Shown here piece by piece: positions 149 to 39,642 of a stretch of 64,000 nucleotides of DNA. Each line of letters opens with the position of its first letter. The stretch's first letter is position 1. Source of the DNA: Gammaproteobacteria bacterium. Lineage in GTDB: Bacteria > Pseudomonadota > Gammaproteobacteria > GCA-001735895. The notes under the pieces were generated by a model that was not told the origin of the DNA, made no database searches, and saw only the letters and a list, made by a program, of their open reading frames with translations. The stretch is taken from NCBI GenBank assembly GCA_050306135.1, contig JBNLGQ010000112.1:67794-131793 (forward strand), in the 5' to 3' direction. The position numbers and the translations under genes were made by a program.

Positions 149-814
149 ATGTTTCGATGGTTTGTTATACCCCTTAGTTTCGCTAGTTTCTTAAACGTGT
201 TTGCCTCCGATAATTTGACATCACTTCAAAACAATGCCATCAACAACTGGGAGAAGAAAATTTTTTCAGGTGAAACCAGCTATCGTTTGCTTGAGTATAA
301 AAATCGTATTGCCTTAAAAGCAACCAGTGAAGATTCAGCATCTGGACTGGTATTTAAAAAACAAATCGACCTCAGGAAAACGCCTTATTTAAACTGGAGC
401 TGGGCAACCAAATATAAGCTTCCAGCGCTGGATGAACGTAGTAAATCAGGTGATGATTATGTAGCTCGAGTTTATGTAGTTATCGATGGTGGATGGCTGG
501 TCTGGAACACCATTTCACTTAGCTATGTCTGGTCAAGTAACCAGGACAAAGGTCAGGTATGGGATAATGCTTTCGCCGGCTCCAATGTCAAAATGTTATC
601 CGTAAGGGGTATGCAGGATGAATCTGGACAATGGTACGATGAAAAGCGCAACGTTTATCAGGACCTGATTGATTATTTTGGTGACAAGGGTAGCGATAAG
701 GAAAACCTCGATGCCTATAGATACATAGACGTTATCGCCATTATGACTGATACAGATAATAGTGGGAGCAAAGCTGAATCTTACTATGGTGATATAATTT
801 TTAGCCCTAAATAA
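149..814 (+). CDS. DUF3047-family secreted protein (signal peptide, unknown function)
   Basis: 221 aa ORF with an N-terminal hydrophobic signal (MFRWFVIPLSFASFLNVFA). Conserved W/Y-rich core (YLNWSWA...YVARVYVV) resembles the DUF3047 family. An AGG-containing RBS lies upstream. Confidence 0.5.
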   Translation: MFRWFVIPLSFASFLNVFASDNLTSLQNNAINNWEKKIFSGETSYRLLEYKNRIALKATSEDSASGLVFKKQIDLRKTPYLNWSWATKYKLPALDERSKSGDDYVARVYVVIDGGWLVWNTISLSYVWSSNQDKGQVWDNAFAGSNVKMLSVRGMQDESGQWYDEKRNVYQDLIDYFGDKGSDKENLDAYRYIDVIAIMTDTDNSGSKAESYYGDIIFSPK

Positions 815-992
815 TTATTACATGACATCACAATGACCCCTATTATGGAAAAAAGTCAAACTCGTTATTTTCTATCTTTAAATAATTCTTATATCTTCCT
901 CGTTTGTAATATTAATCCCACGCAATAACTATGTCTAAAGCCTGGGGATATATGACTATACTGTCTACCGACTTCTTATATTATCCTGAATA

Positions 993-1406
993 ATGGAAAA
1001 TTTAGAAAAGGTTACCTGGTCAAAAGATTTCAGTGTCGGTAATAAAGATCTTGATGCCCAGCATTTAAAGATTGTTAATTTCATCAATGACCTGATTGAT
1101 ATGCCTAGTTTCAAAAATCAGGCTCAAGCACTTGATTGCATCACTAAAATGCTGGCCTATTCAATAGAGCACCTCGACTATGAAGAACAACTATTACAGG
1201 AACTCGGCTATCCTGAAGCTGACAGTCATTCTTTTATTCATCAGTTTTACGTCAGTAAAGTCAAAAACCTGTTAAAATCTTCGTTTCACAATGATGAAAT
1301 GTTCAAGCATGAGATTTTGGATTTTCTTAAGGAATGGTGGACTTATCATATCCTTGAAGAAGACATGAAGTATAAACCCTTTCTGCAAAGTAAAGGGCTG
1401 CTGTAG
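993..1406 (+). CDS. hemerythrin-like metal-binding protein (bacteriohemerythrin)
   Basis: 137 aa. His/Asp/Glu ligand spacing typical of hemerythrin HHE cation-binding domains (H..H..E...H....D). Similar to the second hemerythrin at 33500. Confidence 0.6.
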   Translation: MENLEKVTWSKDFSVGNKDLDAQHLKIVNFINDLIDMPSFKNQAQALDCITKMLAYSIEHLDYEEQLLQELGYPEADSHSFIHQFYVSKVKNLLKSSFHNDEMFKHEILDFLKEWWTYHILEEDMKYKPFLQSKGLL

Positions 1407-1417
1407 TAAGCAGCCCC
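1394..1417. terminator. GC hairpin (gggctgctg...cagcccc) shared by the convergent hemerythrin and prpF 3' ends
   Basis: Perfect 8-9 bp GC stem overlapping the hemerythrin stop. Only weakly T-rich tails on either strand. Confidence 0.35.
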
Positions 1418-1443
1418 TATATCATCTTTAGCTTGTCTGTAGT

Positions 1444-2622
1444 TTAAAAACAATCGCCAGGAACGCGAACCCAACCTTCCATCAATACTCTTGCACTACG
1501 ACTCATAGCGACTTTTTTGACTGTCCACTGACCATCAACTTGAGTAGCTTCTGCACCCACTTTTAAGGTGCCGGAAGGATGGCCAAAAATAACCGAGTCT
1601 CTTTCACCACCACCGGCAGCCAGATTTACCAGCGTACCCGGTATAGTTGCAGCGGTACCAATGGCAACAGCTGCAGTGCCCATCATCGCATGATGTAATT
1701 TGCCCATCGATAGTGCGCGAACATTAAGGTCTATATCTGAAGCATTAATCTGTTTGGCGCTGGATGAGGTATAAGCCTGTGCCGGTGAAACAAAAGCCAC
1801 CTTGGGGGTATGCTGTCGAGCTGCAGCTTCTTCAACTTTCTGTATCAAGCCCATTTTGATCGCACCATGCGCACGGATAGTTTCAAACATGGTCAGTGCT
1901 TTATCATCGCTATTGATGGCATCCTGTAATTCAGTACCAGAGTAACCGATATCTGCGGCATTCAGAAATATGGTTGGGATGCCAGCATTTATCATGGTGG
2001 CCTGAAACGTACCAACACCTGGAACCTCAAGTTCATCTACCAGATTGCCGGTGGGAAACATATCGCCTTCACCATCTGCGGGATCAAGAAACTCAACCTT
2101 CACTTCAGCAGCAGGAAAGGTGACACCATCCAGCTCAAAGTCACCGGTTTCCTGAACCTCTCCATTAGTCATAGGTACATGCGCGATAATGGTTTTTTTG
2201 ATATTCGCCTGCCAGATACGGACTACTGCGGTACCATTTTCAGGTACCTGCTCAGCATCTACCAGTCCACTGCTGATGGCGAACGATCCCACCGCAGCGG
2301 TCAGGTTACCGCAGTTACCACTCCAATCGACAAAAGGCTTATCGATGGAGACCTGTCCGAACAGATAATCTACATCATGGTCGGGCTGACTGCTTTTAGA
2401 CAGGATAACCGTCTTGCTGGTACTGGAAGTTGCACCACCCATGCCATCGGTCTGTTTGCCGTAAGAGTCGGGGCTGCCGATAACACGCAATAACAATTTA
2501 TCGCGCGCTTCACCTGGAACCTGTGCCGCTTCGGGTAAATCACTCAGCTTAAAGAAAACGCCCTTACTAGTACCGCCACGAATATAAGTAGCAGGAATCT
2601 TGATTTGGGATATAAATGTCAT
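1444..2622 (-). CDS. prpF: 2-methylaconitate cis-trans isomerase PrpF
   Basis: N-terminal IKIPATYIRGGTSKGVFF and overall PrpF/AcnD-accessory family similarity. Lies immediately downstream of acnD. Start chosen at the ATG of MTFISQ (392 aa). The track's longer start is a GTG inside the upstream repeat. Confidence 0.85.
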   Translation of the reverse strand: MTFISQIKIPATYIRGGTSKGVFFKLSDLPEAAQVPGEARDKLLLRVIGSPDSYGKQTDGMGGATSSTSKTVILSKSSQPDHDVDYLFGQVSIDKPFVDWSGNCGNLTAAVGSFAISSGLVDAEQVPENGTAVVRIWQANIKKTIIAHVPMTNGEVQETGDFELDGVTFPAAEVKVEFLDPADGEGDMFPTGNLVDELEVPGVGTFQATMINAGIPTIFLNAADIGYSGTELQDAINSDDKALTMFETIRAHGAIKMGLIQKVEEAAARQHTPKVAFVSPAQAYTSSSAKQINASDIDLNVRALSMGKLHHAMMGTAAVAIGTAATIPGTLVNLAAGGGERDSVIFGHPSGTLKVGAEATQVDGQWTVKKVAMSRSARVLMEGWVRVPGDCF

Positions 2623-2640
2623 GGATTTAGTCTCTTGTTT

Positions 2641-2722
2641 AACCACAGAGAACACGGAGTACACAGAGAGATATTTTTATAATTCAATACCTCTGTGCTC
2701 TCTGTGTCCTCTGTGGTTTAAA
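2641..2722. repeat. palindromic CACRGAG nonamer-array repeat, copy 1 (acnD-prpF intergenic)
   Basis: Left arm aaccacagag-aacacggag-tacacagagag, a 20 bp AT-rich loop, then an inverted right arm cctctgtgc-tctctgtgt-cctctgtgg. Same family as 6159-6293 and 39473-39590. Confidence 0.8.
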
Positions 2723-2727
2723 TGTTT

Positions 2728-5313
2728 TTACTGGTTAGATTCAAGAAAGTCCTGAGCAAAACGCTGCAATACACCACCTGCTTCATATACCCGGACTTCT
2801 TCAGCAGTATCCAGACGACAGGTCACTGGAATTTCTACACGCTCACCATTAGCTCGATTCATAACTACCGTCAATTTGGTACGCGCTGTGATTTCACCAA
2901 TCACGTCATAGGTTTCGGTACCATCGATGTTATAGGTATGGCGATTTTCACCCGCCATGAATTCCAGCGGTAGGACGCCCATACCGACTAGATTGGTTCT
3001 ATGAATGCGCTCAAAACCTTCGGCAACAATGGCTTCAACGCCTGCCAGACGAACACCTTTTGCCGCCCAGTCACGTGATGAGCCCTGACCATAGTCAGCA
3101 CCTGCAACGATTATCAAAGGCTGCTTACGCTGCATATAGGTTTCAATCGCTTCCCACATACGTGTGACCTTGCCTTCGGGTTCTATGCGTGCCAGTGAGC
3201 CCTGCTTCACTTCACCATTTTCCTGCACCATTTCATTCAATAGTTTGGGGTTAGCAAAGGTCGCACGTTGCGCGGTCAGATGATCACCACGATGGGTTGC
3301 ATAGGAATTAAAATCGACTTCGGGTAATCCCATTTTGGCGAGGTATTCGCCGGCTGCACTGCTGGCCAGGATCGCGTTGGATGGTGACAGATGGTCGGTA
3401 GTGATGTTGTCACCCAGTACCGCCAGTGGTCGCATGCCCTTCATGGTGCGTTCGCCTGCCAGTGCACCTTCCCAGTAAGGAGGGCGACGGATATAGGTGG
3501 TTTGCGGACGCCAGTCATACAGTGGACTGCTGGCTTCTTCCACTTGGCCCAGGTCGAACATTGGATCGTAGATCTGGTGGAATTGCTCTGGCTTTACGCA
3601 GCTACTGACAATCGCATCGATCTCTTCATCGCTGGGCCAGATATCTTTTAAGGTGATCGGTTTACCGGCTTTATCAGTGCCAAGAACATCCTGTTCGATA
3701 TCAAAGCGCACGGTACCCGCGATGGCATAAGCGACCACCAGTGGTGGCGAGGCGAGGAACGCCTGCTTGGCGTATGGGTGGATACGACCGTCGAAGTTAC
3801 GGTTACCGGAAAGCACCGCTGTTGCATACAGATCACGCTCGATGATTTCCTGTTGAATCTTTGGATCGAGTGCGCCACTCATGCCGTTACAGGTGGTGCA
3901 GGCGTAGCCGACAATACCAAAGCCGAGCTTTTCCATTTCGGACAGCAGACCTGCTTCTTGCAGATACAGTTTGGCAACTTTAGAGCCGGGGGCAAAGGAA
4001 GATTTAACCCAGGGTTTACGTATCAGACCAAGCTCATTCGCTTTACGCGCAACCAGTCCAGCAGCAACGACGTTACGCGGATTACTGGTATTGGTACAAC
4101 TGGTGATGGCGGCAATAATCACCGCACCATCCGGTAATTCACCTTCTTTTTCTTCCCATTTACCTGCAATGCCACGAGATTCAAGATCAGCGGTTGGTAG
4201 ACGACGGTGCGGGTTGGAAGGTCCCGCCATATTACGGCATACAGAAGATAGATCGAATTCCAGTACACGCTCGTATTCAACGTTTGCCAGATCATCCGCC
4301 CACAGGCCGGTGAGTTTGGCGTACTGCTCAACCAGTGCAACCTGCTCCGGTTCACGGCCAGTGAGTTTCAGATAATCGATGGTTTGCTGGTCGATATAGA
4401 ACAGACCTGCTGATGCGCCAAATTCAGGCGTCATATTAGAGATGGTCGCGCGATCACCAATGGTCAGATTAGCGGCACCTTCGCCAAAGAACTCCAGATA
4501 GGATGAAACGACCTTCTCATTACGCAGAAACTCGGTGATTGCCAGTACGATATCGGTGGCGGTGATGCCAGGCTGGCGCTTACCAACCAGCTTGACACCG
4601 ATGATGTCGGGCAGGCGCATCATAGAGGGACGGCCCAGCATGACGGTTTCTGCTTCCAGACCACCAACGCCAATTGCGATAACGCCCAGTGCATCAATAT
4701 GCGGGGTATGGCTGTCAGTACCTACACAGGTATCGGGGTAGGCGACGCCATCACGCGCCTGGATAACGGGCGACATCTTTTCCAGATTGATCTGGTGCAT
4801 GATGCCATTACCGGCAGGAATCACGTCGACATTCTTGAATGCGGTTTTGGTCCATTCGATAAAATGGAAGCGATCATCGTTACGGCGATCTTCAATTTCA
4901 CGATTTTTGTCGAACGCGTCTGGATCAAATCCACCAAACTCAACCGCCAGCGAATGATCCACAATCAACTGAGTAGGTACGACAGGGTTGACTTCGGCTG
5001 GGTCGCCACCCATATCGGCAATCGCATCACGCAGACCAGCCAGATCTACCAGCGCAGTTTGACCCAGAATGTCATGACATACCACACGCGCTGGATACCA
5101 GGGAAAATCCAGATCCTGTTTGCGTTCGATAAGCTGTTTCAGTGAGTCAGTAAGTGCGTCAGGATCACAACGGCGCACCAGTTGTTCGGCCAGTACACGA
5201 GAGGTATAGGGGAGTTTTGCATAGGCACCAGGCTGTATAGCCTCGACAGCCTCACGTGTATCAAAGTAATCAAGCGCTGTGCCAGCCAAAGGCTTGCGAT
5301 ATAGTGTATTCAT
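2728..5313 (-). CDS. acnD: Fe/S-dependent 2-methylisocitrate dehydratase AcnD (aconitase family)
   Basis: 861 aa. N-terminus MNTLYRKPLAGTALDYFDTREAVEAI matches the AcnD family. Aconitase Cys ligands are present. The start codon overlaps the regulator stop (TAATG). Confidence 0.9.
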   Translation of the reverse strand: MNTLYRKPLAGTALDYFDTREAVEAIQPGAYAKLPYTSRVLAEQLVRRCDPDALTDSLKQLIERKQDLDFPWYPARVVCHDILGQTALVDLAGLRDAIADMGGDPAEVNPVVPTQLIVDHSLAVEFGGFDPDAFDKNREIEDRRNDDRFHFIEWTKTAFKNVDVIPAGNGIMHQINLEKMSPVIQARDGVAYPDTCVGTDSHTPHIDALGVIAIGVGGLEAETVMLGRPSMMRLPDIIGVKLVGKRQPGITATDIVLAITEFLRNEKVVSSYLEFFGEGAANLTIGDRATISNMTPEFGASAGLFYIDQQTIDYLKLTGREPEQVALVEQYAKLTGLWADDLANVEYERVLEFDLSSVCRNMAGPSNPHRRLPTADLESRGIAGKWEEKEGELPDGAVIIAAITSCTNTSNPRNVVAAGLVARKANELGLIRKPWVKSSFAPGSKVAKLYLQEAGLLSEMEKLGFGIVGYACTTCNGMSGALDPKIQQEIIERDLYATAVLSGNRNFDGRIHPYAKQAFLASPPLVVAYAIAGTVRFDIEQDVLGTDKAGKPITLKDIWPSDEEIDAIVSSCVKPEQFHQIYDPMFDLGQVEEASSPLYDWRPQTTYIRRPPYWEGALAGERTMKGMRPLAVLGDNITTDHLSPSNAILASSAAGEYLAKMGLPEVDFNSYATHRGDHLTAQRATFANPKLLNEMVQENGEVKQGSLARIEPEGKVTRMWEAIETYMQRKQPLIIVAGADYGQGSSRDWAAKGVRLAGVEAIVAEGFERIHRTNLVGMGVLPLEFMAGENRHTYNIDGTETYDVIGEITARTKLTVVMNRANGERVEIPVTCRLDTAEEVRVYEAGGVLQRFAQDFLESNQ

Positions 5314-6029
5314 TATTTTACTCTCTTGAAGGCGTTTATATGGTTAAGTAATTTGGGTTGCAGGTTTTTCTGGGTATATTGAATGTGTCGCCGCATCAGC
5401 ATCTCAGCCAGCTCGGCATCACGGTTAGCGATCGCCTGTACAATATGCCTGTGCTCGTCAAAAGCCGTAGTGACACGAGGACCGGCCATGCCAAGTTGCA
5501 CTCGATACATGCGAATCAGGTGATAGATGCCATTCATCAATTCAGAGATCAGATGCTGGTTCTTACTACCCAGTATGATGCGGTAATGAAAGTCCACATC
5601 ACCGGCTTCCTGGTAGTAGGTTTCCCCTCCTTTCACGGTCTGAAAATGCGTATTTAACAGGGCTTGCAGGTCTTCAATTTCCTGATCGGTCATATTGCTT
5701 GCCGCAAGTCGAGCCGCCATACCTTCCAGAGCCTCACGAACCTGATACAGACCGGTAAGGCCTTCAGCGGTAAGTGCAACCACACGTGCACCCACATTAG
5801 CCTTGCGCTCGACCAGATGACAGGTTTCCAGTCGGTTGATCGATTCGCGTATCACTGCACGGCTGACCGCGTATTTTGTCGACAAATCGGTTTCACTAAG
5901 CTTCGAACCGGAAACGATAGCACCCTCAACAATATCTGACCGAAGCTGGATAAAGGTTTTATCTGCAACAGTTACAGGTTGTTCGTTGAAAAGCAAAACA
6001 GAGGTCATATTGAGTTTTCCGGGCTCCAA
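5313..6029 (-). CDS. GntR-family transcriptional regulator (FadR/FCD-type), likely regulator of acnD-prpF
   Basis: N-terminal winged-HTH GntR signature (LSETDLSTKYAVSRAVIRESINRLE) with an FCD-like C-terminal domain. Translationally coupled to acnD. Confidence 0.75.
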   Translation of the reverse strand: MEPGKLNMTSVLLFNEQPVTVADKTFIQLRSDIVEGAIVSGSKLSETDLSTKYAVSRAVIRESINRLETCHLVERKANVGARVVALTAEGLTGLYQVREALEGMAARLAASNMTDQEIEDLQALLNTHFQTVKGGETYYQEAGDVDFHYRIILGSKNQHLISELMNGIYHLIRMYRVQLGMAGPRVTTAFDEHRHIVQAIANRDAELAEMLMRRHIQYTQKNLQPKLLNHINAFKRVK

Positions 6030-6158
6030 TTGTCGACAATATAAGCAATATTTAACTAAATATCCACCATTGTTAGGCTATATTGTCGACAAAAGTTAAG
6101 TATGAATACTTATATATAGAGAACTTTTTGCGTTTATTGACACATTTTAAAAGATATT

Positions 6159-6293
6159 AACCACAGAGGGCACAGAGAACACGGAGAATGATGAGTTTGG
6201 TTATCTATCGCTACTTATCATTTTGATAAATCGAATCGATGCAGTTCCAAAAAAACCTGAATACCTCTGTGCTCTCCGTGTCCTCTGTGGTTA
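6159..6293. repeat. palindromic CACRGAG nonamer-array repeat, copy 2
   Basis: Arms aaccacagag-ggcacagag-aacacggag and cctctgtgc-tctccgtgt-cctctgtgg enclose a loop of about 75 bp. Lies in the divergent promoter region between the GntR gene and the GNAT gene. Confidence 0.8.
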
Positions 6294-6334
6294 AACTCTT
6301 TTAACGATGGAAAAATGTTCGAGCAAAAAAGCCT

Positions 6335-6796
6335 ATGAAAATTATTGAAGCCGATTATAAAAGTCTGGCAAAGGTAACGGATTTATTCCGTGAATATCAG
6401 CAATTCATCGGTGTAGATCTGTGTTTTCAGGGCTTTGAAGAAGAACTGGCCGGTCTACCGGGCAAGTATGCGCCACCAGCAGGAGCTATTTTTATTGCCA
6501 TTGATAACGGAGAATTGATTGGTTGTGTGGCGATACAACCCATCGATCAGCAACTGGCAGAGTTAAAGCGACTTTATGTCCGACCAGCCTGGCATGGTCA
6601 GGGGATTGGGAAGCAGTTGTTTGAATGTGCAATGGCGCGGGCGCAATCGATTGGGTATGGCAGTATTGTGCTGGATACGCTGGAATCGATGCGCAGTGCG
6701 CGGAAGTTGTATCTGGGGTATGGATTTAGGGAGATAGAGAGTTATTATCATAATCCGGATCCGACGACTAAGTTTTATCGGTATGATTTTGGGTAA
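6335..6796 (+). CDS. GNAT family N-acetyltransferase
   Basis: 153 aa. Acetyl-CoA binding motif RPAWHGQGIGKQL (R/Q-x-x-G-x-G/A). Confidence 0.75.
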   Translation: MKIIEADYKSLAKVTDLFREYQQFIGVDLCFQGFEEELAGLPGKYAPPAGAIFIAIDNGELIGCVAIQPIDQQLAELKRLYVRPAWHGQGIGKQLFECAMARAQSIGYGSIVLDTLESMRSARKLYLGYGFREIESYYHNPDPTTKFYRYDFG

Positions 6797-6837
6797 TCGT
6801 ATTTTTGTTCATTATTGGTAGTAGTAACTTCCTGGAC

Positions 6838-7880
6838 AGTTGTTTCACACGCCTTAGCTTTTCTTGCTTCGTAGTGTCTAACGAGTAGGCGTGCGAGTGG
6901 CTTTCTTTTGCGCGAAAAGAAAGTCACCAAAGAAAGCGCGCCCCTCAATCCCTTGATTATTCCGGGCTTCCTGCCCTCCACCCTTCGGGCCACACTGTGT
7001 GCGTTCAAAAATGTTCCTGACATTTTTGTCGTCAAAATGGCGCGGGCTTGAAAGGGGAGTTACTGCAGTCTGCTAACATAGTTACTATTTAATTTACTAT
7101 TGTGGTTTAAAGAGATATGGAAATAATTGATATTAGAGAAGCTGTATTAACTGATGTAGATGATTTACAGGAACTTTATGCTCATGTGGATCAAATACAT
7201 CATGACGAATATCCCGAAATATTTAAACCATCAATTAACATCAATAGACCTGCCTCATTTTTTGAAGGAATCTTTTCTGATGACAATATAAAGTTTCTTG
7301 TAGCATGTATTGATAATCAAATTATCGGTTTTATTCATGCGGAATTAAAAAAGGCAAATCACCCTGTGTTACAAGATTACTCTTATGGGCACATATCAGA
7401 TATTGTTATTAGGCCAGATCACAAAAGAACAGGAGTAGGAAGTAAGCTTTTTAAATCAATTGAGAAGTGGTTTAAAGAAAATGAAGTTAAAGAAATAAGC
7501 CTTACCGTATTTAGTTTTATTGAAGAGGCTATAGCTTTTTATAAAAAAACAGGCTTTACCAATAGACATTGTACAATGACTAAAAATGTCGAAGTCTTTT
7601 AACGCCCTTATTGAGTGCCGATTGTGAGTCATTTTGCAGGGTCAGCGCACACGGACGTCCGCTGAGGATCGTTGAGCAGGAGCGAATCTGTTCGTGGCGT
7701 TATTGCCAGGGATGGCGGAAGTGCTGGGAATGCAGGAGCAATTCCCAGTGAAAAGGAGCTCGCACGCCTGTTAGAAAGACACTACGAAGCAAGAAAAGCT
7801 AAGGCGTGTGAAACAACAATCCGGTAAGGTGCAAGCGTAAATAAGATCGCCGCGCTAACGCTCGCGATGACAGGAAAAAA
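6838..7880. repeat. composite repeat element E1 with terminal inverted repeats of about 60 bp (GTTTCACACGC...GCGTGTGAAAC) carrying a GNAT cargo gene
   Basis: The left TIR (6842-6903) is the reverse complement of the right TIR (7750-7812) at about 57 of 62 positions. Internal conserved blocks P (6838-7062) and Q (7606-7812) match element E2 at 40766-41520. The GNAT gene sits where E2 has a 150 bp AT-rich spacer. Confidence 0.75.
7117..7602 (+). CDS. GNAT family N-acetyltransferase (cargo of repeat element E1, low GC)
   Basis: 161 aa. Motif RPDHKRTGVGSKLF. AT-rich relative to the flanking sequence. Confidence 0.7.
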   Translation: MEIIDIREAVLTDVDDLQELYAHVDQIHHDEYPEIFKPSININRPASFFEGIFSDDNIKFLVACIDNQIIGFIHAELKKANHPVLQDYSYGHISDIVIRPDHKRTGVGSKLFKSIEKWFKENEVKEISLTVFSFIEEAIAFYKKTGFTNRHCTMTKNVEVF

Positions 7881-7886
7881 ACAAAA

Positions 7887-8040
7887 ATGCTACTCAACTA
7901 CATAGAACCCGTATTCCGCCCCCCAGTAAGGCTAAATCAATCATTCTACAAGTAACAAACGGTGCTCCTGGAACTAATGTAAATTCTGCGATATGTATAG
8001 CGATGAAAAAAATGCTTCGTCCAAAATCTATAGCGAACTA
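7887..8040 (+). pseudogene. frameshifted 5' remnant of the radical SAM gene (degenerate duplicate of 10335-10490)
   Basis: The first 34 nt are identical to the start of the 10335 gene (atgctactcaactacatagaacccgtattccgcc). Then about 75% identity with a 1-nt deletion, giving MLLNYIEPVFRPPVRLNQSFYK*. The upstream 70 bp is also duplicated (7813-7886 versus 10236-10334). Confidence 0.7.
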
Positions 8041-9374
8041 AAGATATTCCCAGATAGTTTTAATAATAAATCCTTATCAGGCATATTTTTTAGTGTATTA
8101 ACAATTAGAGCATAATTACTTGATTGAATAAGTACTGATTTTTCCTTAGATACATATCTCAAATTTGATGTCTTGTCATGAGTATTTGTAGTGGTTTCGG
8201 TTGTAAATTTAGTCTTCCAACTTTGTGCTATTTTTGAAATAAAGTCTCTACTTTTATCCTCATCACCCATATCTAATAAGAGAATAAAGAAAGAATAATC
8301 ATCAAAGTCATAATAATTTTCATCAGAGAGATTGAAAAGCTTAAGTGTCAGTGACTGATAATATGGTGGCGATTTTTTTGGATAAGTCACTTTTATACCA
8401 GTTAATGATTTTATAGCTGCTAACACCCTTGGCGGTGAATATACATCATAATGATATATATATTCTTCATCCGAAAATTCATTTTTCAGGGTCGATAGTC
8501 CAACCATCATCTGATCTGCAGTTTTAAACGTGTTGTTAACAAGGTCTTTATTCTCAGGATATAAGATAAGCATTGCAGAGTTAGATAACTCAGATAATCT
8601 ACGCGGCATAGGATCAATTCCTTGAGACTTTTTATATTTTTCTGCAATATATTTTTTTCCTAGATGATATTTAAATCGCAGTTCCTGTTTATATAACTTA
8701 GATAATTTTTTCTTAGACGTACTTTCATTATCGTTTTTTTCAGGCTTTTGTTTTGATCCTTTATCTAGAATTTCATAGCCTTCTTCACAGCCATATTCTT
8801 TACATAGCTTTTCAGTGAGATATTCAGAATTTCCTTCTAGTAGCGCGCTGAGTAATTCACTTTGACCAGGTCGATAAATGTCATCATTCATGTTGGCTGG
8901 AAATTTTTCAAAATCAGCTGCATGAACAAATTCATGAATAAATAAAGCCTCGTAAATTTGTTTAGCGACATCAGGATCTTTTAAATCATAAGAATATGCA
9001 ATTTCTAGTTCTTCAGGATTAATAAAAATTGTTTTTATATTATCTTTATACTTACCAAGAACATTTTCCGATGAAGCAGCTGAGGAAGCATCGGATAAAA
9101 GCCGTGCATAAAATGGATGATTAATCATCATTTTATATTCATCATACGCATCTTTATAGGTAAGACGTTTTAGCCGGTATTTATCGGCCAGCTCCCATCG
9201 CACATGGCTAAGATCAACTTGAAGTTCTTTTTCTACAGCATTTCTAGATAATTCGGCTGTAACCCTAAGATTTACCTTGTGTTGATATACACTTTTGAAA
9301 TCGTGAGTAGCACAAGAAGTAATTAGAAATGAAGTTAAGAATAAGATAACCCCACTAGCTTTTCTGATCTTCAT
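8028..9374 (-). CDS. lipoprotein with HExxH zinc-metallopeptidase-like motif (unknown family)
   Basis: 448 aa. Signal peptide plus lipobox (LITSC). HEFVH motif followed downstream by Glu (LLEGNSEY). K/E-rich, low-GC gene that overlaps its upstream partner by 20 nt. Confidence 0.55.
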   Translation of the reverse strand: MKIRKASGVILFLTSFLITSCATHDFKSVYQHKVNLRVTAELSRNAVEKELQVDLSHVRWELADKYRLKRLTYKDAYDEYKMMINHPFYARLLSDASSAASSENVLGKYKDNIKTIFINPEELEIAYSYDLKDPDVAKQIYEALFIHEFVHAADFEKFPANMNDDIYRPGQSELLSALLEGNSEYLTEKLCKEYGCEEGYEILDKGSKQKPEKNDNESTSKKKLSKLYKQELRFKYHLGKKYIAEKYKKSQGIDPMPRRLSELSNSAMLILYPENKDLVNNTFKTADQMMVGLSTLKNEFSDEEYIYHYDVYSPPRVLAAIKSLTGIKVTYPKKSPPYYQSLTLKLFNLSDENYYDFDDYSFFILLLDMGDEDKSRDFISKIAQSWKTKFTTETTTNTHDKTSNLRYVSKEKSVLIQSSNYALIVNTLKNMPDKDLLLKLSGNIFSSL

Positions 9375-10020
9375 TTATGTTCTTTAATTCTTCAAGGTGA
9401 GGGTTGATTGAAATCTTACCTGCTTTGATATCCCCAATAAAACCATTCAGAACAACGTCAGATAACGAGCTAGAGTCATAATTGCATAGATAACCAGTAA
9501 TTTTTGCATCTCCTTTCACATCGAATATTGATGCACCTCCAGAAACATAGTCATAAGATAGGCCAGTAAAATCTCGATATCTTCGAAAGTAGTGGCAATT
9601 GGCATCTTCCAAAGTAAATGGAACAATGGAAATATATTCTACTTTTTTAGGCATTTTATTAATAACTTTAGTTATAATTTTTTCTTTTCCTGTTGATAAA
9701 ACCCTATCTTCAAAAGATTCTTGAATTAAATCTTCAACCGTTGATTCGTTAAGAAATATATAATTATCTAAAAGGTAGGTATAGGAAACAAAGAAATCGA
9801 TGGTTCTTTTTTTATTTATCCAACGGGATGACTCGTAATAATACTGATTCTGTTTTACCTGTTTATAACCATTTACAAATTTTAAATCCAGACTATTTTT
9901 AGGTATAGATACTACTAGAGTAGTTGGTTCTTTTAGTTGACCCTCTAGTGGTACGGTTTGACATGATGCCTGTAAAATTATTGAGATTATTAAAATCAAC
10001 GAAGAAAGGGCTTTTAGCAT
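9355..10020 (-). CDS. lipoprotein of unknown function (first gene of the low-GC two-gene islet)
   Basis: 221 aa. Signal peptide plus lipobox (LQASC). No recognisable domain. Preceded by a 280 bp AT-rich leader. Confidence 0.5.
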   Translation of the reverse strand: MLKALSSLILIISIILQASCQTVPLEGQLKEPTTLVVSIPKNSLDLKFVNGYKQVKQNQYYYESSRWINKKRTIDFFVSYTYLLDNYIFLNESTVEDLIQESFEDRVLSTGKEKIITKVINKMPKKVEYISIVPFTLEDANCHYFRRYRDFTGLSYDYVSGGASIFDVKGDAKITGYLCNYDSSSLSDVVLNGFIGDIKAGKISINPHLEELKNINEDQKS

Positions 10021-10334
10021 AATATTTTGATTTATGTACTACAAAAGGGTCGCTATATTACTAAAGGCAACACTTATATATAATGAGCAATAAACGATTA
10101 TAATTGTAGGGTTCTTCCTACATAAACTAGAAATGAAGTAAGTTCCTATGTATAACAATTGATAAAAATACAAAATAAATCATTTCTAGATACAGAATAA
10201 TGTAGATTAATCGATCCAAATGTTTAAATATTCAGAAATACATCAGCAATCCGGTAAGGTGTAAACCTAAATAAAATCACCGCGCAAAGTTAATACCTTT
10301 GGGTATTTGCGATGACAGGTATAACAAAATATAT

Positions 10335-11222
10335 ATGCTACTCAACTACATAGAACCCGTATTCCGCCCTCCCAGTGAGGCTGAATCACTCATCCTGCAG
10401 GTAACAAACGGTTGCTCCTGGAACCAGTGCACCTTCTGCGATATGTACACCGATGAGCAGAAAAAATTCCGCCCAAAATCCATCGAAAACATCCGCAAGG
10501 AACTCGCTTATGTTGCATCATCAAACTACCCTCTGCGACGGGTATTCCTCGCTGACGGCGATGCAATGACCTTATCATTCCGTCGTCTGCTGGAAATTAT
10601 GCAGGCGATCAATGAATACCTGCCAGATATACAGCGTGTGTCTGCCTATTGCCTGCCCCGTAATATCAAAAATAAAACGATCGATGAATTAACGCAATTA
10701 CGCGAGCTGGGTCTGAGTCTGGTTTATGTGGGCTGCGAGACCGGTGATGATTTAATCCTGGAGAAAATCAGTAAGGGTGAAACCTGGCAAAGCTCACTTG
10801 ATGCTTTATTGAAGCTGGGTGAAGCAGGTATCAAACGCTCAGTCATGATTCTTAATGGTCTGGGAGGTACCCGATATACTGAACAGCATGCCCTGAATTC
10901 AGCGAGTTTGATGAATGAATCTCAACCAGAATATCTGGCTACTCTGGTGGTCACTTTTTATAAAGGGCCAGAGCGATTCCAACAGGGCTTTGGCGGTGAG
11001 TTTACAGCTCTCAATCAGCTGCAACTGGCAAAAGAAATGAAAATGTTGATAGAGTCCTTGTCGCTGGATAAGACCATATTCCGCAGCGATCATGCATCTA
11101 ATTATCTGATCCTTAAGGGTGTATTAAATAAAGACAGGGATAAACTCCTGGGCTTACTGGATAAGGCAATTAATCAACCGGGTTCCGTACCACTTAGACC
11201 GGAATGGCAAAGAGGTCTCTAA
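10335..11222 (+). CDS. radical SAM protein with noncanonical CX4CX2C cluster motif
   Basis: From the DNA: GTA ACA AAC GGT TGC TCC TGG AAC CAG TGC ACC TTC TGC translates to VTNGCSWNQCTFC. A glycine-rich SAM motif follows downstream. ATG start at 10335; the track's start at 10299 is a TTG. Confidence 0.65.
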   Translation: MLLNYIEPVFRPPSEAESLILQVTNGCSWNQCTFCDMYTDEQKKFRPKSIENIRKELAYVASSNYPLRRVFLADGDAMTLSFRRLLEIMQAINEYLPDIQRVSAYCLPRNIKNKTIDELTQLRELGLSLVYVGCETGDDLILEKISKGETWQSSLDALLKLGEAGIKRSVMILNGLGGTRYTEQHALNSASLMNESQPEYLATLVVTFYKGPERFQQGFGGEFTALNQLQLAKEMKMLIESLSLDKTIFRSDHASNYLILKGVLNKDRDKLLGLLDKAINQPGSVPLRPEWQRGL

Positions 11223-11229
11223 TTAACGC

Positions 11230-11871
11230 TTAGTTTCTGGCATCAACTCGTTGCTCTGAAAATCCCAGGGCTATCGCAAAGCCGATAAAGATCACTCCAG
11301 TAACCTTATTAAATACGGTTCTTGTAAAATCATTATTCAACCAGTTTCTAACCTGGCTGGCCATAACGACATACGACATAAATATTAAAAACTGCAACAT
11401 AGCAATGGCAGGATTAATGCTAACTAGTTGAGTGAGTACGGGTTGATGTATATCGATAAACTGTGGCAATAATGCAGTGATATAGATAAATGCTTTGGGG
11501 TTGGATGCGGTTACCAGAAAAGCATGACGAAACAGGTAAGAGAGTTTTCTATGCCTGGGTAAGGTTTCGTTAAGATCAAGTTTATTCACTGGCAAAAACC
11601 AGATTTTCAAACCGAGATAGAGAAGATATAAAGCCCCAGCAATTTTAAACAGATTGAATATAGTGACCGAGGTTGCCAGAATCGATCCAAGTCCAATGGC
11701 ACTGAGAATAATCAAAATCTGTAAAGCGACTACATTACCCAGTACCGCCATAACGGATCGTTTCACACCATGTTGTACACCATTATTGATACACAACAAA
11801 ATGGCTGGTCCCGGAGAGGCCATATAGAAGCCTGTAATGGTTAAAAAGATGACATATTGGTCAAATGTCAT
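11230..11871 (-). CDS. LysE/RhtB family amino-acid exporter
   Basis: 213 aa. Six-TM profile. N-terminal LTITGFYMASPGPA is typical of LysE translocators. Confidence 0.7.
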   Translation of the reverse strand: MTFDQYVIFLTITGFYMASPGPAILLCINNGVQHGVKRSVMAVLGNVVALQILIILSAIGLGSILATSVTIFNLFKIAGALYLLYLGLKIWFLPVNKLDLNETLPRHRKLSYLFRHAFLVTASNPKAFIYITALLPQFIDIHQPVLTQLVSINPAIAMLQFLIFMSYVVMASQVRNWLNNDFTRTVFNKVTGVIFIGFAIALGFSEQRVDARN

Positions 11872-11880
11872 AAAGGTCCC

Positions 11881-12972
11881 TTAATCATGTTGAAGATTGA
11901 TCGGTAAACGTCTTGCTCCCCAGTTTCCTGGAGTAGCTTCAAACACCCCACTGCAGGAAGCACCACAATATTGGCATTTTCCCGTTGCGGTAAGATTCCA
12001 GTCAGAGAGAACATACCAGTCCCGTCCAATCAACATCTCGCCGCATTGATGACAATAGCTACTCTCTCCCCTTTTGTCATGAACATTTCCGGTGTAGGCG
12101 TAATACACACCGTTTGTAATGGCTATGGAGCGTGCTCGCTCAAGAGTCTCGATGGGTGTGGATGGAATATCAAGCATTTTATAATCGGGATGAAAAGCAC
12201 TGAAGTGCATAGGTACATCCGGGCCTAGTTTTTCCACTACCCAGCGGGTCATGGCATCCAGTTCTTCTGCGGAGTCGTTTTTACCGGGAATCAATAGTGT
12301 GGTCAGCTCAAACCAGACATCGGTTTCATGCTTAAGATAGATCAGGGTATCCAGCACAGCCTGTAGATGACTACCGGTCAACTGATAATAGAAATCATCA
12401 GTGAATGCCTTGAGGTCAATATTGGCAGCATCGATATGCCGATAGAACTCTGCGCGTGGTTCAGCGCAGACATAACCCGCTGAAACTGCGACAGTTTTTA
12501 TTCCATACTGATGGCAGGCCCTGGCGACATCAATGGCATACTCGTGAAAAATGACCGGGTCGTTATAGGTAAAAGCGACCGAACGACAGCCATACTCACT
12601 GGCGCTTCTGGCGATCTGATCAGGGCTGGCAGTATTAGCCAGAGTATCTGTTTCGCGCGATTTACTGATATCCCAGTTTTGACAGAATTTACAGGATAGA
12701 TTGCAACCTGCAGTACCAAAACTCAGCACAGGAGTACCAGGCAAAAAATGATTCAGTGGTTTTTTTTCGATAGGGTCAATACAGAATCCACTGGAGCGAC
12801 CATAGCTGGTGAGTACTATCGAGTTAGCTTGATTGGCTCGCACAAAACAAAGCCCACGTTGACCTTCTCTCAATTTACAGTAGCGCGGACAGAGATCGCA
12901 CTGCACTCTTTCACTATCAATAGCGTGCCAGTATCGGGTAGAGACCGTATAGCGAGGATCGAAAGAGCTCAT
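11881..12972 (-). CDS. AmmeMemoRadiSam system radical SAM enzyme
   Basis: 363 aa. CNLSCKFCQN (CX3CX2C) plus a C-terminal Cys cluster (CHQCG...CQYCG). Divergently adjacent to the Memo-like and AMMECR1 genes. Confidence 0.8.
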   Translation of the reverse strand: MSSFDPRYTVSTRYWHAIDSERVQCDLCPRYCKLREGQRGLCFVRANQANSIVLTSYGRSSGFCIDPIEKKPLNHFLPGTPVLSFGTAGCNLSCKFCQNWDISKSRETDTLANTASPDQIARSASEYGCRSVAFTYNDPVIFHEYAIDVARACHQYGIKTVAVSAGYVCAEPRAEFYRHIDAANIDLKAFTDDFYYQLTGSHLQAVLDTLIYLKHETDVWFELTTLLIPGKNDSAEELDAMTRWVVEKLGPDVPMHFSAFHPDYKMLDIPSTPIETLERARSIAITNGVYYAYTGNVHDKRGESSYCHQCGEMLIGRDWYVLSDWNLTATGKCQYCGASCSGVFEATPGNWGARRLPINLQHD

Positions 12973-13081
12973 AGTTATAAGGTTTTAATAAGCAATGAAT
13001 AGCACTATACTTGAATGAGAGCTGATAGAAAAACATCATATTATCCAGAGCCTGTGAACTGGCCCTAATAATTCTAACAAT

Positions 13082-13891
13082 GTGGTACAGATGACTAAAT
13101 CAAAAAATATCAGAAAACCTGCTGTAGCAGGTCAGTTCTATCCAGATGATGCCAGGGAGCTTACCCGAGTATTAAAGGGTCTTTTTGCAGCTTCAAAAAC
13201 CCTTCAGGTTAGTCAGGTCAAAGCCATTATCGTACCTCATGCCGGTTATATTTACTCTGGTGAAGTTGCTGCCACTGCCTATATGACACTGATCCCGCAA
13301 ATACATAAGATCAAGCGCGTCATCCTGATAGGCCCCGCACATAGGGTTGGGTTTCATGGCATCGCGACAACCTCGGTAAGTGATTACTCCACACCACTGG
13401 GTGATGTAACGATTGATAAGTCGGCGATCAATATCATTGAATCACTTCCTCAGGTAATAACACTGGATCGCGCACATACCCATGAACACAGCCTGGAGGT
13501 TCAACTGCCTTTTCTGCAAAACCTGCTCGATGAATTTACTCTGGTTCCATTGATTGTAGGAGACTGTAACTCGCAACAGGTGTCTGAGGTACTCGAATTG
13601 CTATGGGGTGGAGAGGAAACACTGCTCGTCATCAGCTCTGATTTAAGTCACTACAATAACTACAATGATGCCTTACATCAGGACCGAAAAACCTCTCAGG
13701 CCATAATAAATCTACAACCTGAGAATATAGACTTTGATGATGCCTGTGGACGTATTCCAATCAAGGGCCTGCTGATGTGTGCAACTCGGCATAATTTAAC
13801 TCCTCTACAGGTAGACCTGAGAAATTCGGGCGATACCGCCGGTACCAGGGATAGAGTAGTCGGCTATGGTGCCTATATTTTTACTCAATGA
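13082..13891 (+). CDS. AmmeMemoRadiSam system protein B (MEMO1-like)
   Basis: 269 aa. Memo signature AGQFYP...PHAGY...GPAHR...SSDLSHY. The stop overlaps the AMMECR1 start (ATGA). Confidence 0.8.
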   Translation: MVQMTKSKNIRKPAVAGQFYPDDARELTRVLKGLFAASKTLQVSQVKAIIVPHAGYIYSGEVAATAYMTLIPQIHKIKRVILIGPAHRVGFHGIATTSVSDYSTPLGDVTIDKSAINIIESLPQVITLDRAHTHEHSLEVQLPFLQNLLDEFTLVPLIVGDCNSQQVSEVLELLWGGEETLLVISSDLSHYNNYNDALHQDRKTSQAIINLQPENIDFDDACGRIPIKGLLMCATRHNLTPLQVDLRNSGDTAGTRDRVVGYGAYIFTQ

Positions 13892-38201: not shown

Positions 38202-39089
38202 TTGCAAACTCTTTCACCCAAATTGCTGATCGTTGGCAATTGCATTCTGGACCAGATCTGGGAAATAGACAGGTTTCCAGATGAAGATGCTGAATTTCGC
38301 GCTCAGTCACGTTTGCAGCAACTGGGCGGTAACGCCAGTAATACGGCCAGTGTCCTTGGCAAACTTGGCCATGAAGTAGAGCTGATAAGCCTGATGGCAG
38401 ATGACACAAATGCCAGCTGGTTACGTCAACAGCTGGAAAATAAAGCGGTCCAGACATCTCTATGTCCTACTGTAAAAAACAGTATTACACCTGTTTCCAA
38501 TATCTGGCTAAACACCAGTAACGGTAGCAGAACCATCTGTCACTATCGTGATCTGCCAGAACTTTCTTTGCAACAACTTAAACAGATACAACCCGATAGC
38601 TATAAGTGGATACATTTTGAGGGTAGAAATATCCCGGTATTACTTGAGTATTTACCGCTGTTACACAATCTGCATGCTGTGCCTATTTCACTGGAGATTG
38701 AAAAACCACGCGCTGACATCGAAAAGCTGTTGCCTTATGTGAGTGTAGTCATCGTTTCCAACGACTATCTAAAACAACAGCACAACAGTGCTCATGCCTG
38801 CATAAAGCAATTTGCTGAGATTAATCCGCAGCTGAAAATAGTCTGTACACAGGGATCCAAAGGCCTGATCGCGGCTGATGAACAGAAAGAAATTATTGAA
38901 TTAAAAGCTGAAGCCGTTGTTAAAGTTGTCGATAGCATTGGTGCAGGTGACTGCTTTATTGCCGGATTAATCAGCCGATTGAGCCAGCGACAGTCGTTTA
39001 AGCAGGCGTTAATATTTGCCAATAAACTGGCAGCGATTAAAGTGCAACATCATGGCATGAATTTCAATACGGAATGTTTCAATGAATGA
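38202..39089 (+). CDS. PfkB-family carbohydrate kinase (ribokinase/ketohexokinase-like)
   Basis: 295 aa. N-terminal GNCILD, and the C-terminal GAGDCFIAG anion-hole motif. Confidence 0.7.
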   Translation: MQTLSPKLLIVGNCILDQIWEIDRFPDEDAEFRAQSRLQQLGGNASNTASVLGKLGHEVELISLMADDTNASWLRQQLENKAVQTSLCPTVKNSITPVSNIWLNTSNGSRTICHYRDLPELSLQQLKQIQPDSYKWIHFEGRNIPVLLEYLPLLHNLHAVPISLEIEKPRADIEKLLPYVSVVIVSNDYLKQQHNSAHACIKQFAEINPQLKIVCTQGSKGLIAADEQKEIIELKAEAVVKVVDSIGAGDCFIAGLISRLSQRQSFKQALIFANKLAAIKVQHHGMNFNTECFNE

Positions 39090-39423
39090 AGATTTGTATA
39101 TATGTAAGCTAAGTGAAATCAGCGACCCAGCTAGCCGAGGATTTAGTGTCAAAAAGGGTGACAAAGATATCGAAGGGTTTGTGGTGCATCAGGATGGGCA
39201 GTTTTTTGCTTACCTTAATCAGTGTCCTCATACCGGCGCGCCATTAGACTGGGTAGAGCATCAGTTTCTGGATACTGATTCAGCATTGATACAATGTGCG
39301 GTACATGACGCCCGATTTGACATACGAACCGGGCTTTGTGTATCCGGCCCCTGTGTAGGTGATTCCCTGTATCAGCTTGAGGTAGAAATCCGTAACGACA
39401 GTCTATATCTTGTGCTGGCTTAA
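39082..39423 (+). CDS. Rieske [2Fe-2S] domain protein
   Basis: CPHTGAPL ... CAVHDARF (CxH...CxxH). Overlaps the pfkB end by 8 nt. Confidence 0.75.
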   Translation: MNEDLYICKLSEISDPASRGFSVKKGDKDIEGFVVHQDGQFFAYLNQCPHTGAPLDWVEHQFLDTDSALIQCAVHDARFDIRTGLCVSGPCVGDSLYQLEVEIRNDSLYLVLA

Positions 39424-39472
39424 GCTTTCCTGGTAGTTACCAATTTTCGGCTATTATAAAAATTAGAACCTT

Positions 39473-39590
39473 CTCACCACAGAGTACACAGAGATCACAG
39501 AGGTTAAAACGTCCATCTTTTAGTTTCAGAAGATTTCTAAAGTATCAAAACATGTTGATAATCAGTTTAAATTCTCCTCTCTGTGGTGAG
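39473..39590. repeat. palindromic CACRGAG nonamer-array repeat, copy 3
   Basis: ctcaccacagag-tacacagag-atcacagagg, a 70 bp loop, then cctctctgtggtgag. Lies between the convergent Rieske and qor genes. Confidence 0.75.
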
Positions 39591-39642
39591 TGCATTTTTA
39601 CATGCGGTAAATTAAATGAGTATCAGAAGTATTGAGGTAAAC

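Follow-up and report, generated by a model that had tools for sequence, protein, structure and literature searches.

Heptamer-array hairpins between genes of a gammaproteobacterium: a widespread element related to rRNA intervening sequences and probably to GxxExxY nuclease cassettes

Introduction

In Coxiella burnetii, the 23S intervening sequence (IVS) is a selfish element that has a terminal stem of 28 bp and in which 2 or 3 tandem GACAGAT units, their number depending on the strain, stand upstream of a decaying open reading frame (ORF) for the S23p protein; the IVS is excised by RNase III, which cuts at the first repeat (Warrier et al. 2016, PMC4990558). It is the closest experimentally studied relative of the elements described here, namely three palindromic arrays of CACRGAG heptamers, designated E1, E2 and E3, in 64,000 nucleotides of DNA from a gammaproteobacterium (contig JBNLGQ010000112.1, positions 67,794 to 131,793; hereafter the window, in whose numbering coordinates are given). 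We classify E1-E3 as elements that are related to IVSs and that resemble repetitive extragenic palindromes (REPs) and miniature inverted-repeat transposable elements (MITEs). Our preferred reading, which we consider probable, is that they are ORF-less copies of a widespread, unannotated heptamer-array hairpin, built like a 23S IVS, whose full form is a ~490-bp cassette encoding a GxxExxY protein.

Several other systems bear comparison. REPs, including those in bacterial interspersed mosaic elements (BIMEs) and in REP doublets forming hairpins (REPINs), are dispersed palindromes that persist over long times, and the gene of the REP-associated tyrosine transposase (RAYT) is itself flanked by them. 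Among MITEs, the transcribed stems of Correia elements can be targets of RNase III. Some transposons are known to carry repeated binding sites in sub-terminal positions, and homing enzymes of the PD-(D/E)XK type exist.

The GxxExxY protein belongs to the PDDEXK_3 family, the function of which is listed as 'Unknown' (Steczkiewicz et al. 2012, PMC3424549). None of the literature mentions of 'GxxExxY' that were found is about repeats, and literature searches for the heptamer and for the literal arm sequences returned nothing relevant.

Results

Three heptamer-array hairpins in the window

Reading of the sequence revealed three intergenic palindromic arrays in the window, each consisting of tandem CACRGAG units at a 9-bp period, a loop, and inverted copies of the same units. 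An earlier note on this DNA had described three such arrays, and they are real (2638-2721, 6157-6294 and 39473-39590); of the 9-bp unit RRCACRGAG given there, the period and the CACRGAG core stand, while the spacers are not always RR, since TA and AT occur as well. The note had also placed one copy in the promoter region of GntR-acnD and one between acnD and prpF, which agrees with the positions of E2 and E1, respectively. The component parts are listed below.

E1, 2638-2721, no strand: hairpin without ORF; termini TTAAC (2639-2643) and GTTTA (2716-2720)
E1 arm A, 2644-2668, plus strand: CACAGAG aa CACGGAG ta CACAGAG
E1 loop, 2669-2690: 22 nt, AT-rich
E1 arm A', 2691-2715, minus strand: CTCTGTG ct CTCTGTG tc CTCTGTG, as read on the plus strand
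E2, core 6157-6294, no strand: hairpin without ORF; termini TTAAC and GTTAA
E2 arm A, 6162-6186, plus strand: CACAGAG gg CACAGAG aa CACGGAG
E2 loop, 6187-6264: 78 nt, without ORF and without recognisable GxxExxY remnant
E2 arm A', 6265-6289, minus strand: CTCTGTG ct CTCCGTG tc CTCTGTG, as read on the plus strand
E3, 39473-39590, no strand: partly decayed hairpin without ORF; termini CTCAC and GTGAG
E3 arm A, 39478-39502, plus strand: CACAGAG ta CACAGAG at CACAGAG
E3 arm A', 39579-39585, minus strand: one intact inverted unit left
Intergenic block holding E3, 39424-39642: 219 nt, absent as a whole in empty-site relatives

E1 and E2 each carry three units per arm, and E3 carries three and one, separated by a loop of ~76 nt. 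With the right-hand end of each element given as its reverse complement, the outer termini are TTAAC and TAAAC in E1, TTAAC and TTAAC in E2, and CTCAC and CTCAC in E3, one mismatch each. In an inverted-repeat search, E2 and then E1 were the best two repeats of the whole window. The arms of E1 measure 31 nt in this search and are 84% complementary; the outer inverted repeat of E2 reaches 6147-6304, with 40-nt arms that are 85% complementary; and E3 has a perfect terminal stem of 12 nt. CACRGAG occurs 22 times in the window, compared with 10.1 +/- 3.2 times in shuffled sequences, none of 100 of which reached that count, and 16 of the 22 copies fall inside the E1-E3 clusters. No fourth copy was found in the 64 kb, even when degenerate CRCNGAG arrays were included in the search.

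Folded as RNA, E1 has an energy of -43.5 kcal/mol (z = -9.0 relative to shuffles) and E2 of -61.5 kcal/mol (z = -8.2), with similar values on both strands. E3 folds only weakly, with -32 kcal/mol (z = -2.7), because one of its arms has decayed; its 12-bp terminal stem alone is kept. An Rfam scan of the window gave no hits, and the window contains no rRNA. E1-E3 are not terminators: a scan for intrinsic terminators detected no terminator-like site at them, the loops are 22-78 nt long, and no T-run follows. A promoter scan found no promoter at the elements themselves.

E1 lies in the gap between acnD and prpF, both on the minus strand, 6 nt past the acnD stop (2728) and 16 nt ahead of the prpF start (2622). 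It sits within the acnD-prpF transcription unit, also on the minus strand, and so must be transcribed in the acnD-prpF mRNA. E2 lies where the GntR gene (5313-6029, minus strand) and an acetyltransferase gene (6335, plus strand) diverge. E3 is found between convergent genes for a Rieske protein (39082-39423, plus strand) and a quinone reductase (39643-40617, minus strand).

Presence, absence and conservation in relatives

Relatives with a PrpF identity of 98% and 92% carry E1 and E2 at the same positions, and there one arm of E1 has 2 units rather than 3. In a relative with 85% PrpF identity the acnD-prpF gap is 13 nt; because no CACRGAG array is found anywhere in its locus, both E1 and E2 are absent from it. 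E3 is found in every near-identical strain. A relative with 92% ADH identity (L340) has a Rieske/quinone-reductase gap of 253 nt with a fuller E3, in which 3 units stand where the window has 1; the short arm in the window reflects an 18-nt deletion between tandem heptamers. At the same site, the stop-to-stop gap is 2 nt in two relatives (L342 and L343, 90% ADH identity) and 11 nt in a third (L344, 89%), the assembly of which does carry E1 and E2. Since the 219-nt block is absent from these relatives, E3 is an insertion polymorphism.

To assess the conservation of E1 and E2, the window was compared with the 92% PrpF relative. The third codon positions of prpF are 57% identical between the two, while the E1 and E2 arms are identical at 88 of 90 positions; thus, the arms are actively maintained. 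One of the two differences is at heptamer position 4 and the other in a spacer. Arm A' of E1 is identical throughout (30/30), with a loop that has diverged, and in E2 the arms are identical at 58 of 60 positions and the loop at ~75%. Selection or concerted evolution thus preserves the arms, but not the loops, at positions 1-3 and 5-7 of the heptamer, and heptamer-array hairpins are long-lived at a locus. Taken together, these data demonstrate that the window copies are inserted DNA at unrelated intergenic sites, where they fold into long imperfect stems.

A family with discrete ends in many phyla

A triple-heptamer pattern, CACRGAGNNCACRGAGNNCACRGAG, was used to scan 185,579 species genomes (596 Gb). 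At least 119 stretches matched, where ~2 would be expected by chance according to an arithmetic estimate, and a scan of viral contigs with the same pattern returned at least 120 stretches. Among the matches listed, the hosts include Acidobacteria, Planctomycetes, beta-, gamma- and deltaproteobacteria, Bacteroidetes, Chloroflexi, Cyanobacteria, Spirochaetes and others, and 67 elements have the same layout of arm, loop and inverted arm. No copy is present in 5,426 complete genomes of E. coli. The matches examined in annotated records (Pseudoalteromonas shioyasakiensis, Bacteroides finegoldii) overlap no annotated feature, and eight loci with elements gave only sub-threshold matches in Rfam, similar to microRNA precursors, which reflect a generic hairpin.

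Members of the family consist of inverted arms of 1 to ~5 tandem C-R-C-N-G-A-G heptamers with a period of 8-9 bp; loops without an ORF are 11-204 nt long, with a median of 61. The terminus outside the outermost heptamer is TT[C/A][A/G]C on both sides, as seen in a sequence logo of 91 elements (the various analyses of the ends covered 91-122 elements). Beyond this consensus, mirroring of the two ends is confined to outward positions 1-4 (z = 8, 10, 6.6 and 3, respectively), and none is detected from position 5 outward. The element is therefore a unit with discrete ends. In addition, complete hairpins are nested within the loops of others (L029, 808-1015; L053, 3751-3964; L066, 456-687 and 1720-1920). 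These inner hairpins have their own TTCAAC...GTTGAA or TTTCAC...GTGAAA ends and carry another heptamer variant, of the CGCGGAG, CGGGGA or CACGGAG type, inside the loop of a hairpin of the CACAGAG type; such nesting is what discrete insertable units would produce.

Positions relative to gene ends, a check proposed in the earlier note, were determined for 45 classifiable ORF-less elements on the basis of a crude gene call. The flanking genes are tandem in 31 cases, convergent in 11 and divergent in 3, and the median distance to the stop of the upstream gene is 24 nt. No recurrent family was apparent beside 67 elements on inspection of the translations of the neighbouring genes, for which no clustering or Pfam scan was run, and no transposase ORF was found inside or next to any element examined. 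We conclude that the heptamer-array hairpin is a discrete, inserted, pan-bacterial unit, which is apparently undescribed.

The existence of genome-specific arm subfamilies was also considered and is not supported, as arm identity is 0.64 within a locus and 0.60 between different loci or organisms (p = 0.10). Two individual cases may be mentioned. A phage-like contig (L278, IMGVR_UViG_3300005936_000040, ~450-13750) carries six hairpins with TCTCT-CACAGAG ends in 14 kb; its proteins are mostly unannotatable, with a weak hit to the SU10 adaptor, and several of the hairpins come directly behind a gene within a co-directional array, in the manner of punctuation in an operon. In the megaplasmid of P. 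shioyasakiensis (CP076682; L330, 2390-2700) a hairpin is part of a tandemly duplicated unit of ~200 bp, the second hairpin copy being degenerate.

GxxExxY cassettes with the same arms

In two of the CACRGAG loci (L042 and L081) an ORF starts directly behind the 5' arm, and a third (L090) contains a remnant of one. The reverse test used 80 metagenomic loci that encode GxxExxY, 79 of which have enough flanking sequence for an inverted-repeat test. Two or more CACRGAG units are found within 90 nt upstream in 27 of the 80 loci, two or more CTCYGTG units within 110 nt downstream in 28, and both in 22. Most of the other loci have the same geometry with variant heptamers that co-vary between the arms, i.e., CGCAGAG/CTCTGCG, CACGAAG/CTTCGTG or CACAAAG/CTTTGTG. 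The flanking inverted repeat exceeds the 99th percentile of shuffled controls in 68 of the 79 genes. The median 5' arm ends 15 nt ahead of the start codon and the median 3' arm begins 6 nt past the stop, giving a cassette of ~490 bp in total. Translated arms appear as spurious extensions of some database proteins (TENTEDTEM, TEGTEDTEA, SSVVSSVSS). Because 68 of 79 GxxExxY genes are flanked by such inverted arrays, the window copies can be read as ORF-less versions of this cassette; their loops are devoid of an ORF, as are those of 95% or more of the sampled CACRGAG elements, and they therefore represent the ORF-less form.

In annotated genomes, cassettes are co-oriented within conserved gene pairs, namely between fabD and fabG in Sphingomonas and between radA and the gene of an FAD protein in Bacteroides; a third was found in Bernardetia. 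The order is reversed, with the 3' arm before the ORF and the 5' arm after it, in L130 (FWPV01000156.1, ~1501-1866) and also in L153, L189 and L202, so that the GxxExxY ORF stands between two hairpins or arms and not inside one loop.

The cargo protein, of ~123 aa, corresponds to TIGR04256 and PF13366 (PDDEXK_3), and the family comprises 34,464 clusters at 50% identity (E <= 0.001). Its invariant residues are D67...E77-x-K79 and the motif G24xxE27xxY30. No solved structure matches the protein by sequence. An AlphaFold2 model with a pLDDT of 92 is closest to LHK-Exo, Cas4 SSO0001 and lambda exonuclease among PDB structures (TM 0.46-0.56, E ~5e-3); the fold predicted by this model is that of a PD-(D/E)XK nuclease. 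PHROGs contains nothing similar, and PADLOC gave only a marginal Cas4-like hit. At the level of sequence, arms of the CACRGAG type are specifically associated with a PD-(D/E)XK gene, the residues of which predict intact catalysis. Two natural fusions of two GxxExxY domains (P0361 and P0363, 276-295 aa) were also found; these double-domain proteins fit action as a dimer.

Constraint on the heptamers

For 65 ORF-oriented cassettes, the 5' arm was aligned to the reverse complement of the 3' arm. Mismatches between the arms cluster at position 4 of the heptamer and in the spacers of 1-2 nt. Read in the sense RNA, 95 of them would be G.U and 92 would be A.C, a result that speaks neither for nor against a sense-strand RNA helix. 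Because mismatches concentrate at position 4 and in the spacers, and G.U is as frequent as A.C, the conserved core is the sequence C-R-C-N-G-A-G in each arm and not mere complementarity. Five cassettes with common flanking genes (L129, L140, L144, L154 and L176) allow the rates of change to be compared: the ORFs are 33-58% identical at third positions and 84-94% at first and second positions, and the arms are 93-100% identical, differing in spacer bases only. Taken together, these data show that the heptamers are kept in a sequence-specific manner in both ORF-bearing and ORF-less copies.

Arrays around four-helix-bundle genes

Genes for the four-helix-bundle ('S23 ribosomal') protein were located with a consensus sequence, which the annotation of its hits validated, and five of them, in plasmid records, were inspected (L335-L339). 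They are flanked by arrays of ~7-nt tandem units. At three of the five the arrays are inverted and specific to the lineage, the unit being GGGAAAA in Geminocystis, AAGGTTY in Riemerella and TTAGCTG in Calothrix; in Pseudanabaena the arrays are in direct orientation and the gene is located between cas6 and cas4. In Azospirillum lipoferum AZO_p2 (L337), a 23S rRNA gene (492 bits with the Rfam LSU model) contains a four-helix-bundle ORF with inverted GACRGAG/GACGGAT arrays, and this element is therefore a classical IVS. None of the loci examined has a four-helix-bundle cargo within CACRGAG arms. The arrays of the cyanobacterial genes resemble short tandemly repeated repetitive (STRR) heptamers.

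The GntR-acnD-prpF cluster and a candidate operator

The propionate-related cluster at 1444-6029 (locus L120) consists of GntR-acnD-prpF. Its neighbours are acetyltransferases, a hemerythrin and a DUF3047 protein, and there is no prpB or prpC gene within ~6 kb on either side. In the upstream region of GntR-acnD, a pair of palindromes, TTGTCGACAA, is found at 5869-5885 and 6030-6046, and one of the two adjoins or overlaps a sigma-70-like promoter site (6066 to 6038, minus strand). Both palindromes are kept in the 92% relative, and a TGTCGACA core upstream of acnD is also found in the 85% relative (L124), which lacks the hairpins. The TTGTCGACAA pair, a different palindrome from E1 and E2, is probably the true operator of the GntR-family regulator; the bracketing of GntR-acnD by E1 and E2 looks incidental. 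Some 260 nt upstream of the start of the quinone-reductase gene (40617) there is an unrelated inverted repeat of 27 nt (40881-40907 and 40961-40987), which is 85% complementary and has a spacer of 53 nt.

Discussion

The closest parallel to E1-E3 is the 23S IVS. Both are discrete inserted units with terminal inverted repeats of tandem heptamers, and in both the number of units slips, from 2 to 3 among Coxiella strains, between 3 and 2 in E1, and between 1 and 3 in E3. A further likeness of IVSs, those of Leptospira among the comparators, to the family as a whole is the small, decay-prone ORF in the loop. However, E1-E3 are located in mRNA or intergenic DNA between protein genes and not in rRNA, and they carry no ORF; the window heptamer is CRCNGAG with a spacer of 1-2 nt, whereas IVS units have a 7-nt period; and the cargo of CACRGAG arms is the GxxExxY nuclease and not S23p. 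RNase III cuts the stem of the Coxiella element and may, by analogy, process the window elements.

In population structure, the closest analogue is the REPIN-RAYT system. Like REPs and BIMEs, the hairpins are dispersed intergenic imperfect palindromes, found mostly just downstream of genes; as with REPINs, there are many ORF-less doublets to one copy with a protein gene, this gene has repeat units on both of its sides, and conserved arms persist vertically over long times. The differences are that the arms of E1-E3 start with TT[C/A][A/G]C-CACRGAG and have no GTAG/CGTC head, that they are heptamer arrays and not a single palindrome of 20-40 nt, that the only recurrent flanked gene observed encodes the PD-(D/E)XK protein GxxExxY, where REPINs have an HUH/Y1 (IS200-like) RAYT, and that the heptamer motif is common to many phyla, in contrast to the species- or genus-specific REPs. 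MITEs such as the Correia elements of Neisseria share the small size, the terminal inverted repeats and the insertion polymorphism in intergenic and intra-operon positions, but neither a target-site duplication nor a DDE-transposase parent was found for the heptamer hairpins, the putative parent being the ~490-bp nuclease cassette. Thus, the suggestion in the earlier note of a REP/MITE-like family holds insofar as these are discrete inserted palindromes with defined ends and a presence/absence polymorphism, and fails as regards the REP head and the target-site duplication. Finally, the cassettes resemble free-standing homing-endonuclease genes in their arrangement, with a small nuclease gene precisely inserted, in the same orientation, between such conserved host genes as fabD and fabG; the heptamer arrays have no counterpart there, and GxxExxY cassettes are stable at orthologous loci.

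Our preferred reading of E1-E3 as ORF-less copies of a GxxExxY-type hairpin suggests how such elements might function. The ORF-less hairpins may have arisen from GxxExxY cassettes or may be serviced by them in trans, and the GxxExxY nuclease, or else another conserved factor, could recognise the heptamers as its sites. The nuclease would then act both on its own cassette, in cis, and, in trans, on copies that lack the ORF. In transcribed copies such as E1, the stem might be a double-stranded RNA substrate of RNase III, by analogy with the Coxiella IVS; such processing would allow the insertion to be tolerated, and could make the upstream mRNA independent in its stability from the downstream mRNA.

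A number of observations weigh against this reading. An ORF is present in only 3 of 119 CACRGAG loci among the matches listed, and a profile search of translated loops detected a remnant of the nuclease in 1 of 84 ORF-less loops (L090) and in none of those in the window, so that derivation of the ORF-less form by deletion is shown in one case only; nor is there any similarity to GxxExxY anywhere in the 64-kb window. In 91 elements no target-site duplication was found, whether sought behind the end of the inverted repeat or at fixed offsets, and direct repeats of 2-6 nt are not in excess at any offset. At the empty site of E3, no duplication can be defined and no insertion boundary was defined; the missing block extends ~50 nt beyond the hairpin on each side (~100 nt in total), with exact junctions that are unreadable, and the structure of these flanks, also absent from empty sites, contains nothing informative. 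The difference in arm identity between same-locus and different-locus pairs is not significant. As for the RNA, the mismatches in the 65 cassettes show no strand bias, position 4 and the spacers are often unpaired, and an RNA-level action of the hairpins would follow from analogy. Cassettes and hairpins also stay fixed at a locus while synonymous sites saturate, which looks more like a maintained function than a hopping parasite.

A more far-reaching version can be put forward only tentatively, and we regard it as possible but not as probable. Here, the GxxExxY nuclease and its inverted CRCNGAG arrays would form an autonomous ~490-bp hairpin cassette of an undescribed kind; by homing, or by a transposition that leaves no target duplication, it would spread through Bacteria and their phages and enter intergenic sites and the loops of hairpins; the heptamers would be the sites of the nuclease, the ORF-less hairpins its REPIN- or MITE-like dependants, and the IVSs of the S23p type a sister branch.

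The alternative that survives best, though we consider it rather unlikely, is that the hairpins are non-mobile structural signals in RNA or DNA that are selected by the host, e.g., stem-loops that process or stabilise mRNA and punctuate operons, and that GxxExxY genes are mere lodgers or users. The strong retention of arms at fixed loci while synonymous sites saturate would be expected of such signals, as would the median position of 24 nt past an upstream stop, the rarity of divergent promoter regions (3/45), the six hairpins in 14 kb of L278, several of which follow genes of a co-directional array, and the very stable stems, the more so as the stem of the Coxiella IVS is an RNase III site (PMC4990558). 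However, the same heptamer and termini in distant phyla, together with complete copies nested in one another, are hard to explain without horizontal spread, and E3 is polymorphic for presence and absence. Conservation is also specific to the sequence, in that position 4 and the spacers vary freely and often do not pair and the mismatches show no G.U bias, which a purely structural RNA signal would not lead one to expect; E2 is in a promoter region and not behind a gene; and there is no U-tract signature of a terminator.

It is less likely still that the hairpins are what remains, in the form of non-autonomous MITEs or solo ends, of a conventional insertion sequence with multiple transposase-binding heptamers in its terminal inverted repeats, and that they are mobilised by a DDE or other transposase encoded elsewhere. 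The defined symmetric termini, small size and insertion polymorphism would suit such an origin, and the heptamers are reminiscent of the sub-terminal binding sites of some transposons, but the 91 elements have no target-site duplication, no transposase ORF is in or beside the elements examined, and the sole recurrent cargo is the 123-aa GxxExxY nuclease. Moreover, records annotated with the Prokaryotic Genome Annotation Pipeline (PGAP) have no mobile-element annotation under the matches, and the elements remain at fixed loci over long divergence. The idea of regulator-binding hairpins, raised in the earlier note, according to which the arrays bind a regulator of GntR-acnD-prpF, either the neighbouring GntR-family protein or another one of the propionate pathway, can be set aside as highly improbable: two of the three copies flank GntR-acnD and repeated heptamers look like operator arrays, but E3 is at unrelated genes, the same arrays lie beside unrelated genes in many phyla, E1 is behind acnD and not at a promoter, and the TTGTCGACAA pair, kept even in the hairpin-less L124, is the likelier operator.

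The heptamer-array family is wider than a species-specific REP, in that it spans phyla and is related to rRNA IVSs. If our preferred reading, in which E1-E3 are ORF-less copies of the GxxExxY-type hairpin, is true, the palindromes around GntR-acnD-prpF are not to be read as operators of a propionate regulon. A conserved, strongly folding element that is absent from Rfam and unannotated in the records examined would then exist inside operons, with a possible role in the processing or stabilisation of mRNAs. The old puzzle of where the IVSs of 23S rRNA come from, how they move and what their ORFs do would be tied to a far larger population of elements outside rRNA, and the large GxxExxY family would have a testable function, namely action on the heptamer arrays on either side of its own gene.

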